Shown here in pieces: positions 5,934-11,166 of a stretch of DNA of 64,000 bases. The first letter of the stretch is position 1. Every line of letters begins with the position of its first letter. The stretch covers positions 2,720,001 to 2,784,000 of the forward strand of contig OY969934.1 in NCBI GenBank assembly GCA_963704725.1, given 5' to 3'. Origin of the DNA: an uncultured Actinomycetes bacterium (GTDB lineage: Bacteria; Actinomycetota; UBA4738; HRBIN12). The translations under genes and the position numbers were made by a program. The notes beneath the pieces were generated by a model. That model searched no databases, was not told where the DNA came from, and saw only the letters and a list, made by a program, of their open reading frames with translations.

Positions 5934-6797
5934 TCAGGCGTCGTACTCGTAGAAGCCACGGCCGGTCTTGCGGCCGAGCTGGCCCGCGGTGACCATCCGC
6001 TTGAGGAGCGGCGGCGCGGCGAAGCGTGGCTCCTTGAACTCGTCGTACAGGACGTTCGCGATCTGCAGGCACGTGTCGAGCCCGATGAGGTCGGCCAGGC
6101 GGAGCGGCCCCAAGGGGTGGTTCAGGCCGAGGTGGATCGCCGTGTCGACGTCCTCGCGCGTCGCGAACCCGTCCTCCAGCATGCGGACGGCGTCGTTCAG
6201 GTAGGGGATGAGGAGGGTGTTCACGATGAACCCGGCCCGGTCCCGCGACAGCACCGTGGTCTTGCCGAGCGTCACGCAGTAGGCCCGGCCGAACTCCACG
6301 GTCTCGTCCGACGTCGTGATGGCCCTCACGATCTCGACGAGGCCCATCACCGGGACCGGGTTGAAGAAGTGCAGCCCGATCACGAGCTCCGGGCGCGTGG
6401 TCGCCGCGCCGAGGTCGGCGATCGGGATCGACGAGGTGTTCGATGACAGGATCACCTCGGATCGGGTGACCTCGTCGAGCCGGCGGAAGATCTCGAGCTT
6501 CGTGCCGGGATCCTCCGTGGCGGCCTCGATGACCAGGTCGACGTCGGCGAGCGCCTCGACGTCGGTCGTCCCGGTGATCCGGCCCAGGGCCTCGTCGCGA
6601 TCGGGCGACGCCAGCCGATCCCGTTCGACCGCGCGCAGCGTCGAGACCTCGATGCGTGATCGCCCCGACTCGACCAGCTCGTCGCTCGACTCCAGGTAGA
6701 TCACCTGCTGACCCGCTCGGGCGGCGACCTCCACGATGCCGGAGCCCATCAGCCCGCAGCCGACGACCCCGAGCGTGCGGACGTCCTCTCCCTTCAC
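5934..6797 (-). CDS. 3-hydroxybutyryl-CoA / 3-hydroxyacyl-CoA dehydrogenase
   Basis: GVVGCGLMGSGI, SNTSS, GLHFFNP, GFIVN, GRKTGRGFY. Confidence 0.93.
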   Translation of the reverse strand: MKGEDVRTLGVVGCGLMGSGIVEVAARAGQQVIYLESSDELVESGRSRIEVSTLRAVERDRLASPDRDEALGRITGTTDVEALADVDLVIEAATEDPGTKLEIFRRLDEVTRSEVILSSNTSSIPIADLGAATTRPELVIGLHFFNPVPVMGLVEIVRAITTSDETVEFGRAYCVTLGKTTVLSRDRAGFIVNTLLIPYLNDAVRMLEDGFATREDVDTAIHLGLNHPLGPLRLADLIGLDTCLQIANVLYDEFKEPRFAAPPLLKRMVTAGQLGRKTGRGFYEYDA

Positions 6798-6836
6798 GGG
6801 GCCCCCTCGGGTCGAACCGGCGTCAGGGGGCAAGCG

Positions 6837-6842
6837 TACAAT
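6837..6842 (+). promoter_or_regulatory. -10 element (TACAAT) of the putative copper operon
   Basis: Near-consensus -10 hexamer just upstream of in-frame TTG (6853) and GTG (6865) starts. Confidence 0.55.
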
Positions 6843-6864
6843 CACCGGAACCTTGGCCACGCCC

Positions 6865-7449
6865 GTGCCTGCGACGCCGCGCCTTCGAGGCCTCCCGGTG
6901 CTCGGTTTCGCCGTGGCCGGGGTCCTCCTCGGGCACACGCTCACGTATCTCCTGGCGATCCCGGACCCGCTCCACCGCGATCTCGTCCTGCGGACGACCG
7001 GACACGCGTACCTGCCCGCGGCGGGCGAGGCGGCGCTCGTGCTCCTGCTCGCCGGCGTCGCGGCGGTCGTCGTCCGGGCGTGGTCTCGTGGGCGGCGCGA
7101 GGGACGGGACTCGTTCGGGGGCCTGGCCGGGCTGCTGACGGCGGTCCAGGTCTCCGGGTTCCTGGGCCAAGAGGTCCTGGAGCGACTCGTCACGCGGTCG
7201 CCCCTCGGCGAGCTGGTGCACGATCACGTCCTTGCCATCGGTGTCCTGCTCCAGATCCCCCTGGCCCTGGCGGCCGCCGCGATGCTGCGTTGGCTGGCCC
7301 GCGCCTCCGCGGCCGTGGCGGAGACGACCGGCGGTCGCACCGCCACCCCCCGGCCGGCGCTGGTCCTGGCGGCCACCGCCCCGGCCGACGTCCCCCACGG
7401 CCGCGTCGCGGCCACGGCCCGGCGCGACCGGGCTCCTCCCTCCGCCTGA
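6865..7449 (+). CDS. His-containing polytopic membrane protein with C-terminal RAPP motif; candidate translational-arrest leader
   Basis: About 4 hydrophobic segments with GH..TY, H.D…GHAY, QE.LE; ends RRDRAPPSA*; alternative start TTG 6853. Confidence 0.7.
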   Translation: MPATPRLRGLPVLGFAVAGVLLGHTLTYLLAIPDPLHRDLVLRTTGHAYLPAAGEAALVLLLAGVAAVVVRAWSRGRREGRDSFGGLAGLLTAVQVSGFLGQEVLERLVTRSPLGELVHDHVLAIGVLLQIPLALAAAAMLRWLARASAAVAETTGGRTATPRPALVLAATAPADVPHGRVAATARRDRAPPSA

Positions 7450-7505
7450 CGCCTCCCCCAACCTGCGCGCGACGGACGTCGCGCTCGGAGACGCCTCAAG
7501 GAGGA
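7434..7505 (+). promoter_or_regulatory. Predicted SD-sequestering RNA structure
   Basis: TCCTCC 7434-7439 complements GGAGGA 7500-7505; CTCCG 7440-7444 complements CGGAG 7486-7490; inner hairpin GCGCGAC-GGAC-GTCGCGC 7467-7484. Confidence 0.55.
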
Positions 7506-7510
7506 CGAGC

Positions 7511-8197
7511 ATGATCGATCGCATCACCAGACTGATGGCTGCTGCCGCGCTCACGGTGGGGTTCGTGGGCCTGCTGGCCTCACCGGCGACTGCGCACGAG
7601 GAACGCGCGGTCGGCGACTTCGACCTCACCGTGGGGTTCGGCACGGAGCCGGCATACGTGGGCGAGCCGAACAGCGCCATCCTGCTGCTGTCGCGTGGCG
7701 GTCGGCCGGTCGTAGACCTGGGCGACACCCTGAGCGTCGACGTGTCGTTCGGCGACGCGGCCCCGTTCCCCTTGTCCGTCGAGCCCTTCTTCGAGGAGGG
7801 CGAGTTCGGAACGCCCGGCGACTATCGAGCCTGGTTCATCCCGACGAGCGCCGGACAGTACACGTTCCACTTCACGGGGACGATCGACGGCCAGGACGTC
7901 GACGAGACCTTCGTCTCCGGCCCCCAGACGTTCAACGACGTCGAGACCCCGACCGACGCCGAGTACCCCGATCAGCCGCCTTCGACGAGCGAGCTGGCCG
8001 ACCGGATCGACCGCGAGGTGCCGAGGCTCAACGATGCGATCGGCGGAGTGAAGAGCTCGGCCCTGGCCGCGGCGCAGAGCGCCTCCGACGATGCATCGGG
8101 CGCGCGCACCGTCGGCGTGATCGGAGTGGCGGTGGGAGGGCTCGGCTTGATCGCCGCCGCGGCGGCCATCGGCATGTCGCGCAGGGCGAGGGCGTGA
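7511..8197 (+). CDS. Secreted, C-terminally membrane-anchored protein with predicted N-terminal His (putative Cu-binding)
   Basis: AAGGAGG SD; signal peptide PATA|HEER; beta-rich domain (GQYTFHFTG); C-terminal TM plus RRARA. Confidence 0.75.
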
Positions 8198-8222
8198 GCC
8201 TCGTGTGTTCGAAGGGCTGAGG

Positions 8223-8771
8223 ATGCTCGCACACGCGGGAGGCGCGCCCGAGTTCGCCTCGTCGATGCTCGTCGCCGGCGGCGTGGTGGCCGGCTGGGTC
8301 GGCCTCAGCCGCCTGCGGGGTCGGGGCTTCCGGCGGCTGCCGCATGCGGCCGGCGTGACCCTTCTCGCGCTCGCGCCGGTGATCGTGGTGGCGTCCGTGG
8401 TGGTGCCCTCGCTCGTGTGGCCCATCCCGTCCGCGAGCGGACCGCGCCCGGCCTCGACCGCGTCGATCTCGTTCGTCGCGCCGAAGCCGGGGCAGAGCGT
8501 TACGGGCGACCTGCTCGATGTGCGGTTGGAGCTGGACGGCGGCAGGATCGTGGAGAGCTCCTCGACGACGGTCACCCCTGACACCGGGCACGTCCATGTC
8601 TTCCTCGATGGGCAGCTCCTGACGATGACCTACGGCCTCGAGCAGGAGGTGGGCGTGGCGGGGCTGACACCCGGCGTCCACCGGTTACGGGCCGAGTACG
8701 TCGCGGCCGACCACGCACCCTTCAACCCGGACGTGGTGGCGACGGTGACGTTCGTGAAGGCCGCGACGTGA
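8223..8771 (+). CDS. Membrane protein with His-motif Ig-like domain (DUF4399-like)
   Basis: MLAHAGG start, two TMs, [24 protein letters not shown]. Confidence 0.7.
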
Positions 8772-10726
8772 GGCGGGCCGTCGTCGTCTCGGTCGTGGCG
8801 CTCGCCCTGGTGGGCGCCTGGACCGCCTCCGCGGTCCGCGCCGGTGCGCACGCCGCCCTGAAGCGGAGCGAGCCGGCCAACGGCCAGCTGCTCGACCGTT
8901 CGCCCGCGGAGATCCGGCTCTCCTTCACCGAACCGCCCGACCTCTCGCTCACGACGATCGGAGTCGTGGACCGCACCGGAACGGCGGTACGGACCGGGCC
9001 GGTGGAGGTCGCCGGCGGCGACGACCAGACGATCCGGGTTGCGCTGCAAGACCTACCGGACGGCGTCTACACCGTGTCGTGGCGGACCGTCTCGGCGACC
9101 GACGGGCACCTCACCTCGGGGTCCTTCTCGTTCGGGGTGGGCGTCTCCGCGGCCGACGTGACGCCGGTCCGGCAGGAGGATCGAGCGCGAGCGACCTCGC
9201 CCACCGCCGCCGGGGTGGCCGGGCGATGGGCACTGTACGCGGGCCTGGCGGTCCTGTTCGGCGCGGCCGCGGGGGGGCTGTTCGCGTTCGGCCCGCTGAG
9301 CGTGCACCGACCGCGGCTCCTCGGTGGGGCGTGGACGCTCGCCGCGGCCGGCGTGGTCGTCACGACGCTGGACGAGCGCGCCACGGTCGGCGTGTCGCTC
9401 GGCACGCTGCTCCGATCGGATGCGGGGGCGTCGCTCGCCCGGCTCGCGGTCGCCGTGGCCCTCGTCGGCCTCGTCGCCCTGGCGGCGAGCCTGCGACCGG
9501 GGACCGCCACCCTCGTGCTCCTCGCCGGGACCACGGCCGCCGCCATGGCCGTCCGGGCGTTCGCCGGCCATGCCGGGCCGTCCGTGCTGGAAGGCACGCT
9601 TCAGGCGGCGCACTTTGCCGCCGTGGGGGCGTGGATCGGGGGGCTCGTCTGGCTGGTGCTCGCCGTGCGGCGAGGGGCGGAGCCGGAGCGGGTGCGACGG
9701 TACTCGACGATCGCCGCGACCGGCCTCGCCGTCATCGTGGTCACGGGGTACCTGCGAGCCACCAACGAGCTCGGGGGGTTCGGTTGGTGGCTGCGTGCGT
9801 TCGACAACAGCTACGGCGTGGCGCTGGTCGTCAAGCTCGCCATCGTCGCCGCGCTCGTCTCGCTCGGCGCGGTCAACCGGTACCGGAACGTGCGCCGCTA
9901 CGAGGCGCTCGGGGCTCGTCCTCTGCTCCGCACGGTGAGCGGCGAGCTCGTCCTGGCCGCCGGAGCGCTCGCCATGACCGGCCTGTTGACAGGGCTCGCC
10001 CCCCAGGGTGTGGTGGCATCGGCGGGCCCCCGTCCCCCCGCACCGCTCGTCGTCACGGGATCGGACTTCGCCACGACCACGAAGGTGCGCCTGCAGATCT
10101 CGCCCGGAACCGTCGGCCCGAACGCATTCGAGGCGAGGGTCACCGACTACGACACGGGCGAGCCGGTGGACGCCCGAAAGGTCACGCTGCAGTTCTCGCT
10201 CCCAGAGCGCCCCGAGGTCGACTCGACGCTCGAGCTCGAGCGCGGGACGAACGGGACGTGGCGGGCCGGGGGGACGTCGCTGTCGCTCGACGGCACCTGG
10301 GACGTCCGCGTCCTCGTGGAGGGCTCGGCCGGCTCGGTCGAGGTGCCCCTTCGCGTGACGCCGAAGTCCCCGCGGCAGGACATCGACGTGTCGCGGGCCG
10401 AGGGGCAGCCCGACATCTACACGATCCATCTGGAGGACGGCGTGACCGTGCAGGCGTACGTGGACCCCGGGACGCCCGGGCAGACGAACCAGGTGCATCT
10501 GACCGCCTTCGACGCGGGCGGCGCCGAGCTGCCCCTGCACCATGCCGTCCTGGACATCACCCCGGAGGACGGTCAACTCCTCGAGCCCGAGCTGATCCGG
10601 CTCTCGTCGGGACACTTCGTGGCCAACGTCGAGATCGCGTCAGGGACCTCGACGTTCGCGATCTCCATGCTGACCAGGGACGGTCGCGATCTCGCGGCGT
10701 CGTTCCAGGAGACCTTCGCAGGATGA
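8768..10726 (+). CDS. Copper transport protein, CopC-CopD fusion (YcnJ-like) with extra C-terminal beta domains
   Basis: AGA|[10 protein letters not shown]-terminal His, W..VSATDGH..SG (CopC); AGHA, H..AV..W.GGL, YG..L..KL (CopD); two YtkA/FixH-like domains. Confidence 0.88.
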
Positions 10727-11166
10727 AAGGAGCGATCGTGACGCGAACCCACACCGTGGCCCTGTCGATCGTCGCGGCGGTGACCCTGGCGGCCTGCGGG
10801 GGGAACGGGTCCGGCGACGCCGCGTCGCCGAGCTCGGGAACGTCCTCCCGTCCGAGCAGCCCCGCCCGGCTCTCGATCGAGGCGCCGAAGGCCGGCCACG
10901 TCGTGCACGGCTCGACCGTCCAGCTGCGCGTCGATCTGGAGGGCGCCCGCCTCGTCCCCGCCACCACGACCGACATCGTGCCCGACGAGGGGCACCTCCA
11001 CGTCATCCTGGACGACTCCCTGATCTCGATGACCGAGGGCCTGCACCAGTCGATCCCCAACCTCTCGCCGGGGATGCACCGGTTGACGGTCGAGTTCGTG
11101 GCCAGCGACCATGCCCCGTTCGACCCGAGGGTGGTCGCCGTGACCGAGTTCGAGGTGCAGCCGTGA
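10723..11166 (+). CDS. Lipoprotein with His-motif domain, paralog of 8223-8771
   Basis: Lipobox LAAC; GHLHVILDD, HRLTVEFVASDHAPF; start ATG 10723 or GTG 10738. Confidence 0.75.
   Translation: MKGAIVTRTHTVALSIVAAVTLAACGGNGSGDAASPSSGTSSRPSSPARLSIEAPKAGHVVHGSTVQLRVDLEGARLVPATTTDIVPDEGHLHVILDDSLISMTEGLHQSIPNLSPGMHRLTVEFVASDHAPFDPRVVAVTEFEVQP

Follow-up and report, generated by a model that had tools for sequence, protein, structure and literature searches.

A predicted helix between putative RAPP arrest codons and the Shine-Dalgarno sequence of a likely copper operon in an uncultured actinomycete

In a 64,000 nt stretch of DNA from an uncultured Actinomycetes bacterium (contig OY969934.1, positions 2,720,001 to 2,784,000; hereafter the window), a small membrane-protein gene ends in codons for Arg-Ala-Pro-Pro (RAPP), a motif of known ribosome arrest peptides, and lies upstream of copper-related genes. 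RNA folding calculations predict that these codons sequester the next gene's Shine-Dalgarno (SD) sequence in a long-range helix, and the pairing between the end of the upstream open reading frame (ORF) and the SD is clearly non-random at the level of the gene family. The best available reading is that a ribosome arrested at RAPP unlocks an SD that is held closed by the arrest codons themselves; it is a prediction, to which we give an even chance. It draws on the sequence, the predicted pairing, and the conservation and codon bias seen across the family.

Pairing of the RAPP codons with the Shine-Dalgarno sequence

The upstream ORF ends with CGG GCT CCT CCC (RAPP), Ser TCC, Ala GCC and the TGA stop codon at 7447-7449 (Table 1). 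An earlier note on this DNA had proposed that the Ala-Pro-Pro codons double as an anti-SD sequence. On re-reading the sequence, all of the elements it listed are present, including TCCTCC (7434-7439), the SD GGAGGA (7500-7505), CTCCG (7440-7444) and CGGAG (7486-7490). The two T-ending codons are unusual, as had been claimed: across 1138 proxy genes of this genome, GCT accounts for 3.1% of Ala codons and CCT for 4.1% of Pro codons. The Pro-Pro context softens this rarity, with CCT making up 10.5% of first Pro-Pro codons and GCT preceding Pro-Pro in at least 27 of 220 cases; the exact string GCT CCT CCC is found at none of the 220 other Ala-Pro-Pro sites in the genome. As a separate observation on the same proxy genes (genome G000), the first Pro of Pro-Pro is encoded by CCC in 17.8% of cases compared to 36.7% overall, while CCT rises to that 10.5%, CCA rises to 9.0%, and GCT is over-used before Pro-Pro. 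This codon context fits an avoidance of long C runs or of slippery CCC-C sites.

The minimum free energy (MFE) structure of nucleotides 7400-7530, calculated by RNAfold, has a free energy of -53.2 kcal/mol. In this structure, GGAGGA (7500-7505) is joined to UCC-C-UCC (7437-7443), and GAGC (7507-7510) to GCUC (7432-7435); the CGGAG element pairs with the post-stop GCCUCC (7451-7456), and not with CTCCG; and a 7-bp hairpin caps the whole. The nested structure drawn in the earlier note holds up in that all 18 of its pairs are canonical, but its register is shifted relative to the predicted optimum: it sums to -24.8 kcal/mol, compared to -33.9 kcal/mol for the same span of the MFE structure, and the best fold forced into its SD register (-48.5 kcal/mol) is 4.7 kcal/mol worse than the MFE. 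In both registers, the SD pairs with the RAPPS codons, and the rare T's at 7434 and 7437 pair with the A's at 7508 and 7505. The note had named an SD predicted to be unpaired as the result that would count against it; the calculated pairing probability of the SD is ~0.99, and the cost of opening it is 9.0 kcal/mol.

Two backgrounds from the same genome (3.45 Mb, 71.3% GC) put these values in context. The first is a sample of 300 GGAGG sites, each with a start codon and a long ORF after it; their opening costs have a median of 5.1 and a 90th percentile of 8.7 kcal/mol, which places the window in the top tenth, and their pairing probabilities have a mean of 0.66 and a median of 0.70. The second comprises 40 operon-like gene pairs in which GGAGG follows the upstream stop codon at a distance of 35-70 nt. 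Pairing of the SD with the stop-proximal region reaches P >= 0.5 in 10 of them and P >= 0.9 in three, including the present locus.

Scans of genomes and metagenome contigs yielded 95 further loci, or 96 with the window. According to the profile-based pipeline, an RxPP tail is present in frame at 90 of the 96 (RAPP at 81, RGPP at 6 and RSPP at 3), and in 80 of these 90 it has the exact form RxPPxx followed by the stop codon. Of the six exceptions, two run off their contigs, three carry RAPPxx and a stop codon in a shifted frame, and one is truncated or chimeric; the shifted-frame tails, at the metagenome-assembled genome (MAG) loci L008, L017 and L021, may be assembly indels or real frameshifts. 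An SD and a start codon were assigned at 85 of the 90 loci. Of the remaining five, most were lost to contig ends, while at L081 the search pattern missed a purine run that resembles an SD; a few assigned downstream starts are doubtful, such as those of L072 and L080. The final set has 74 unique regions in 23 clusters at 75% identity, and the stop codon is TGA in 62 of the regions.

Across this set, the SD pairs at P >= 0.5 with the stretch from the Arg codon to 15 nt past the stop codon in 65 of the 74 regions and in 19 of the 23 clusters. By predicted partner, the regions divide into 33 in which the SD pairs with the tail, 31 in which it pairs with the post-stop box, and 10 with other or mixed partners. 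The codons that encode the tail are biased in the direction of an anti-SD sequence. In particular, CCUCC occurs in 57 of the 74 tails (77%; cluster-weighted 16.5 of 23), compared to the 15% expected from the amino acids and codon usage. The first Pro codon (Pro1) is CCU in 17 of 74 regions, or 11.5 of 23 after cluster weighting, where 6% is expected from usage and 10.5% from first Pro-Pro codons genome-wide; it is also CCU in 8 of 13 additional divergent loci from relatives. The second (Pro2) is CCC in 62 of 74 (38% expected), and the codon after it is Ser UCC in 45 of 74, UCC being 24% of Ser codons. Rare codons are not a general need of RAPP arrest, because the RAPP of CruR, a copper regulator of Bordetella pertussis discussed below, is reported to be encoded by frequent codons.

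Further, box 2 is kept in the relatives as non-coding sequence, GGAGACG of the pre-SD element is kept in the closest ones, and a GC-rich hairpin of different sequence occupies the position of the 7467-7484 hairpin. A distant clade of four metagenome loci (L086, L089, L093 and L094; 27-30% identity) has an SD, AGGAGAG, that is exactly complementary to its tail sequence CUCUCCU. These ORFs end in RAPPLS directly upstream of a CopC-like gene, and opening their SD costs ~7 kcal/mol in the free mRNA and ~2 kcal/mol under a stalled-ribosome mask.

Ribosome occupancy and alternative explanations

The putative arrest was modelled with Pro1 (7435-7437) in the P site, so that Pro2 (7438-7440) would be in the A site, a placement based on the CruR toeprint reported in PMC12992588. 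The partner bases 7432-7443 then lie at -3 to +9 and therefore inside the footprint of the stalled ribosome, and the stop codon lies at +13 to +15. In these calculations, the opening cost of the SD falls from 9.0 kcal/mol in free RNA to 4.7 with a mask from -15 to +13, to 4.5 with a mask extended to +16, and to 3.6 kcal/mol with a terminating ribosome. Across settings, the stall masks give 4.1-4.7 kcal/mol, and within the 7400-7530 frame they lower the cost from 8.5 to 3.1-4.4 kcal/mol; the lower end belongs to masking of 7420-7455, the check that the earlier note had proposed, under which the unpaired probability of GGAGGA, averaged over its bases, also increases from 0.05 to 0.34. A masked cost of ~4.5 kcal/mol is near the genome median. 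The family behaves similarly, with median opening costs of 8.2 (free), 4.5 (+16 mask) and 3.8 kcal/mol (terminating ribosome). For the regions whose SD pairs with the tail, the medians are 7.3 (free), 3.3 (+13 mask) and 3.8 kcal/mol (+16 mask).

The model therefore predicts that a stall removes a specific lock, yet it never predicts an SD that is fully free. The claim that a ribosome stalled at RAPP would expose the SD is thus upheld in part: the ribosome would cover box 1 and the opening cost falls, but the SD stays mostly paired. A small local CCUC/GAGG hairpin also competes for it.

Several results weigh against the reading that RAPP arrest unlocks the SD, and they are set out here together with the other explanations. 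One is chance complementarity in GC-rich DNA, with no function, which we regard as very improbable. In the window, the 7400-7530 fold is no more stable than its shuffles (z = -0.41; 70 of 200 are as stable or better), synonymous recoding gives a tail:SD duplex as strong or stronger in 5.9% of 1000 sequences (p = 0.059), and the background sites already reach the median pairing probability of 0.70 given above. Among the first 23 loci, the recoding p-value is at or below 0.05 in only 4 and at or below 0.2 in 11. From the window alone, non-chance pairing is only suggestive. The 74 regions are, in addition, mutually related, and therefore raw counts overstate their independence. Covariation, which had been proposed as a check, is weak: in an alignment of 26 sequences, 97% of cells in the box 2:SD helix are paired, but the changes are wobble-compatible and one-sided only; moreover, in duplexes between 5′ arms and SD flanks, the own flank gave no better pairing than a flank from another clade (median -0.34 kcal/mol; none for the window). 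The register of the SD was lost in MAFFT alignments of 26 and 11 relatives, and RNAalifold therefore derived no useful consensus from them (-2.2 and -4.9 kcal/mol). Against chance stand the excess of CCUCC in the tails (77% where 15% is expected), the conservation of box 2 although it is non-coding, and the ORF-end sequestration in 19 of 23 clusters, compared to 10 of 40 background pairs; these family-level statistics make chance unlikely.

A second explanation is plain translational coupling, in which any ribosome that finishes the upstream ORF melts the helix, so that the next gene is translated proportionately, arrest is no regulated step, and the Pro-Pro codons are present since an in-frame CCUCC anti-SD reads as Pro-Pro or Pro-Ser. 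This fits the predicted pairing equally well, and for that reason the pairing is no independent proof of arrest; the earlier note had taken it as support that is independent of the protein sequence. The terminating mask gives the lowest opening costs of all (the family median of 3.8 kcal/mol, with none of the 74 regions above the background 90th percentile), and box 2 is covered only by a ribosome at or near the stop codon. Further, two other operon-like gene pairs in this genome have equally strong tail:SD pairing and no Arg-Ala-Pro-Pro motif. These two pairs (G000:C1, upstream stop codons at ~475401 and 1032950 on the + strand, outside the window) have upstream ORFs that end in LPP and APPS; their GGAGG SD pairs with the last codons of the upstream ORF at P >= 0.9, with opening costs of 8.4 and 9.8 kcal/mol. 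Anti-SD sequences encoded as Pro-Pro or Pro-Ser at ORF ends may thus be a wider coupling device in this genome. What coupling leaves unexplained is the protein: the invariant Arg, the Ala or Gly after it, the fixed two-codon distance to the stop codon and the length-conserved 43-residue linker. PMC12992588 further reports that proteomes strongly avoid RAPP and RGPP, and that each C-terminal example put to the test arrested. On balance, we consider coupling without arrest unlikely.

The post-stop box raises a third possibility, in which the logic is inverted: box 2 would keep the SD closed during arrest, and release of the ribosome to the stop codon, perhaps triggered by copper, would uncover it. 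In the masked window, the SD is still 0.90-0.95 paired, or has an unpaired probability of 0.20-0.34, depending on the calculation, and box 2 becomes its main partner; in the calculation with 0.95 pairing, box 2 holds a share of 0.79, and the terminating mask opens the SD further. Similarly, the 31 regions that use the post-stop box cost 8.9 kcal/mol free and remain closed at 7.8 kcal/mol under the +13 mask; only the +16 mask brings them to 4.6 kcal/mol. Their helix begins with the stop codon's GA (+14), and therefore its opening by a stalled ribosome depends on the true exclusion edge. The usual toeprint edge is +16, at which this class already opens to that 4.6 kcal/mol, and in the window stalling alone removes ~4.5 kcal/mol. 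Moreover, a terminating ribosome dwells only briefly, and the stall systems described so far in publications (SecM, CutF) are turned on while the ribosome is stalled. We therefore rate an inverted switch as improbable. It is because of the second anti-SD box, and of the half of the family that uses it, that both this explanation and plain coupling retain some weight.

Five loci (L082, L083, L087, L090 and L091) also speak against a general role for the helix, with no predicted sequestration (opening costs of 0.3-2.8 kcal/mol). Their tails are 9 residues long, with five residues after RAPP, and their spacer is short (32-37 nt); not every member of the wider family thus has the RNA device.

A fourth explanation is that the stall is read out by transcription. 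In CruR (Bp2923) of B. pertussis, a DUF2946 protein with a CXXC motif, copper relieves the stall and the read-out is Rho-dependent termination (PMC9426467); by analogy, the stalled ribosome would shield the C-rich RNA after the stop codon from Rho, and the SD pairing would be secondary. CruR is the only copper-operon RAPP protein with a genetically dissected read-out in the literature covered, box 2 and the tail are C-rich, and for the RAPP-type peptides ApcA, ApdA and ApdP no SD-sequestering hairpins were predicted by their authors, as reported in PMC7897499. Against a Rho read-out, the spacer has just 61 nt and is predicted to be strongly structured, SD sequestration is far above background family-wide, and the tail codons are rare here, where those of the CruR RAPP are reported to be frequent (PMC9426467). 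We judge a Rho read-out about as improbable as the inverted switch.

The membrane protein and the copper-related genes

The coordinates of all features are collected in Table 1. The upstream ORF belongs to a real, unannotated gene family. A search at E <= 0.001 found 73 homologs with lengths of 174-234 aa, of which one is called 'nitrate reductase gamma subunit' by its source and all other named ones are hypothetical. Within the organism's own order, 30 of 41 genomes have a match, and within its genus 12 of 13 do. Two of the genomes counted, G011 and G029, are flagged as unpublished, and their loci are outside the locus analysis; without them, the counts become 28 of 39 and 11 of 12. The ORF is open from 6736, and the database protein (P0001) starts at GTG 6898. 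The true start is more likely GTG 6865, because the conserved PRLRGLPV sits upstream of 6898; it gives a 194-aa form, which is typical of the homologs. A divergent gene for 3-hydroxyacyl-CoA dehydrogenase (3HCDH domains) is ~65 nt from this GTG. No SD is evident for the GTG, and therefore the mRNA may be leaderless.

Table 1. Features of the locus, in coordinates of the window
Feature	Position	Strand	Basis
Membrane-protein gene, ~183-194 aa, four long helices, C-terminus RRDRAPPSA-stop	6865..7449	+	homologs, AlphaFold, translation
RAPP codons CGG GCT CCT CCC, putative arrest site	7429..7440	+	sequence
Anti-SD box 1 (GCUC-C-UCC-C-UCC), predicted partner of 7500-7510; includes TCCTCC 7434-7439	7432..7443	+	pair probabilities 0.72-0.99
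TGA stop codon, two codons past Pro-Pro; +13 to +15 of a RAPP-stalled ribosome	7447..7449	+	sequence
Post-stop C-rich box 2, CGCCUCCCCC	7450..7459	+	predicted fold
Apical 7-bp hairpin GCGCGAC-GGAC-GUCGCGC, without a U-tract after it	7467..7484	+	predicted fold
Pre-SD element with GGAG, CGGAGACGC; predicted partner of box 2 in free RNA	7486..7494	+	predicted fold
SD GGAGGA (7500-7505) and 3′ flank CGAGC, 3′ strand of the predicted sequestering helix	7500..7510	+	sequence, fold
Downstream gene of a 228-aa secreted protein, ATG 7511-7513	7511..8197	+	translation, domain searches
Rest of likely operon	8205..10726	+	Pfam matches

Among 44 of the 73 homologs, which were aligned, the invariant positions include R178, P180 and P181, with Ala or Gly at 179, so that the C-terminal R-[A/G]-P-P of the RAPP/RGPP arrest-peptide class is conserved; H13, H36, Q84, E92, E95, R96 and Q119 are invariant as well. 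The AlphaFold2 (AF2) model (pLDDT 81.4) has helices at residues 2-20, 39-63, 73-98 and 110-148, followed by a disordered segment (149-183). On this model, the four long hydrophobic helices (pLDDT ~90) would supply the N-terminal localisation signal that characterises the same class. Between the end of helix 4 (R135) and the Arg of RAPP lies a linker whose length is 43 residues at 49 of the 74 loci and stays within 41-46 at every one, although its sequence is poorly conserved and predicted to be disordered.

The protein has no Pfam family at a threshold of 0.01 and no NCBIfam family, and its neighbours in the ESM Atlas are all 'hypothetical protein'. In a Pfam search of 44 members at E <= 1, DUF2946 is not among the 25 of 32 families listed, and no Pfam match is significant for the family. 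The window protein has no Cys, nor is Cys among the invariant columns, and the combination of a Sec signal peptide with a conserved CxxC or CxxxC motif, a mark of the DUF2946 regulators, is accordingly absent; a third mark of those regulators, a copper operon (CopC, CopD) downstream of a tail with an arrest motif 2-3 residues before the stop codon (RAPPSA), is present. When R[AG]P[PG] tails were sought across the whole genome, the 170 matches were swamped by spurious GC-rich ORFs; a stricter scan left 9 matches, of which only the window locus looked convincing by eye. No description of the family or of its RNA architecture was found in the literature covered, although the supplementary tables of PMC12992588 may list the family.

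The first downstream gene encodes a 228-aa protein in which a signal peptide is followed by a mature N-terminus of HEER, a beta-sandwich domain and, at the C-terminus, a membrane helix. The protein falls in no Pfam or NCBIfam family, is syntenic across the relatives listed, and has 37 invariant columns, including H120. Its structural model, which is of low confidence (pLDDT 63), gives weak Foldseek likenesses (TM ~0.6) to the DUF4426 protein PA0388 and to the copper-resistance protein CrdA of Helicobacter pylori. For the main family within the 74 regions, the gene that follows codes, apart from a few exceptions, for a secreted protein of ~225 aa whose mature form begins with His; its counterpart in the distant clades is CopC-like and also matures to an N-terminal His. 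Next in the window, ORF 8205-8771 has weak matches to DUF6130 and DUF4399, both under the Pfam cutoffs, and 8768-10726 encodes a CopC-CopD-FixH/YtkA fusion (CopC 1.3e-22, CopD 6.3e-13). NCBIfam gave no family for the three proteins examined. With this CopC-CopD fusion, the downstream genes are copper-related. As a side observation, the ORFs that flank the fusion (8205-8771 and ~10740-11166) have a similar C-terminal segment, with GHVHVFLDG in one and GHLHVILDD in the other, and DHAPF.P.VVA.V.F in common.

A consensus scan of 6600-7700 found no sigma-70-type promoter and no intrinsic terminator. Rfam over 6600-7800 gave nothing relevant; the single match, to the sRNA CC2171 on the minus strand, scored 23 bits compared to a gathering score of 75.

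Known arrest systems and the proposed switch

RAPP arrest upstream of copper genes and SD stem-loops melted by a stall are both already published. PMC12992588 describes RAPP/RGPP arrest peptides near the C-termini of small secreted and membrane proteins, enriched upstream of YcnI, PCuAC, TonB and copper genes, and reports that these motifs are strongly avoided in proteomes; all seven Streptomyces lividans proteins with a C-terminal RAPP or RGPP arrested on both S. lividans and B. subtilis ribosomes. Its main text has no mention of Shine-Dalgarno, secondary structure or stem-loop. Fujiwara et al. (2025) catalogued many RAPP/RGPP proteins upstream of copper genes and other non-Sec genes, with no RNA-level mechanism in the text searched. 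The present family may well fall inside the PMC12992588 survey. With the proteins described there, which include SLIV_18480 of S. lividans, it has in common the phylum (Actinomycetota), four transmembrane segments and conserved His residues (both reported for SLIV_18480), a C-terminal RAPP and a metal-related downstream gene.

On the peptide side, CruR as described in PMC9426467 is also close: like the present protein, it has its RAPP 2-3 residues before the stop codon, heads a copper operon, and has a spacer of conserved length between sensor and RAPP (~45 residues, compared to 43 here). EF-P is reported to have no role in its regulation. CruR differs in being a DUF2946 protein with frequent RAPP codons and a Rho read-out, whereas here rare codons form the anti-SD sequence and the predicted read-out is SD sequestration.

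On the RNA side, the nearest relative is CutF-CutO of Rhodobacter capsulatus, where a copper-induced stall melts a stem-loop by which the ribosome binding site (RBS) of cutO is masked (10.1101/2025.02.05.636593). CutF is reported to be a Sec-secreted DUF2946 protein with a CxxxC motif and a proline-rich GPPPRL tail that is sensitive to EF-P. Like the present ORF, it is a small protein at the head of a copper operon, with a proline-rich stalling motif at its C-terminus and an intergenic stem-loop over the RBS. In contrast, the present protein is actinobacterial, with four predicted membrane helices, no Cys, no Pfam family and a RAPP tail, and the predicted anti-SD sequence consists of the arrest codons themselves and the post-stop box.

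The SecM-secA, MifM-yidC2 and VemP-secDF2 pairs have an arrest near the end of an upstream ORF that disrupts an SD-sequestering stem-loop (PMC7897499, PMC10987492), and their nascent chains have a membrane-targeting segment, as does the present protein; they monitor Sec or YidC and regulate Sec or YidC genes, whereas the targets here are copper proteins. As in SecM, the SD in the window is predicted to be paired in the free mRNA and the 5′ strand of its helix to lie within the stalled-ribosome footprint; in 31 of the 74 relatives, the partner of the SD starts at about +14 of the stalled ribosome. Altogether, the locus appears to resemble CutF and SecM in its RNA and CruR and the S. lividans set in its peptide, which lies outside DUF2946.

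The mechanism that we propose for RAPP arrest unlocking the SD would proceed as follows. The disordered C-terminal tail of a four-helix membrane protein would present a RAPP-type arrest motif two codons before the stop codon. In the idle mRNA, the SD of the gene that heads the copper operon, which encodes a secreted protein with an N-terminal His, would be locked in the long-range helix, with the RAPPS codons (box 1) as its 5′ strand and box 2 and the apical GC hairpin as a back-up. Arrest with Pro1 in the P site would bury box 1, with the leading edge of the ribosome touching the stop codon; the opening cost of the SD would fall to an ordinary level, and a second ribosome could initiate downstream. 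Once the arrest is released, termination would follow two codons on and the helix would re-close. Insertion or folding of helix 4 may cause the release, and this may hinge on copper binding to the conserved His and Glu residues. That arrest occurs, what releases it and in which direction it regulates are all inferred.

A bolder version of this proposal, which we hold only tentatively and regard as doubtful, is that the locus contains the first RAPP-class peptide with a SecM-style translational switch in place of Rho termination, one that is written in the arrest codons, graded over three states and copper-sensing. An in-frame CCUCC anti-SD reads as Pro-Pro or Pro-Ser, and therefore a helix that masks the SD at an ORF end already encodes a slow Pro-Pro; addition of Arg-Ala would turn it into a hard arrest. 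The two nested anti-SD boxes would then provide three states, namely tightly closed when idle, loosened when stalled at RAPP and re-closed after release, and a four-helix membrane protein of Actinomycetota that senses copper would set the switch.

Overall, the analysis defines an unannotated, sensor-like membrane protein family linked to CopC and CopD. The family offers a concrete and conserved architecture by which RAPP arrest could be read out in Actinomycetota, comprising a fixed two-codon spacer, an anti-SD sequence in the arrest codons or just past the stop codon, and a GGAGG SD. If the mechanism is confirmed, it would introduce no new principle, and would widen the principle of CutF and CruR to another protein fold and another phylum.

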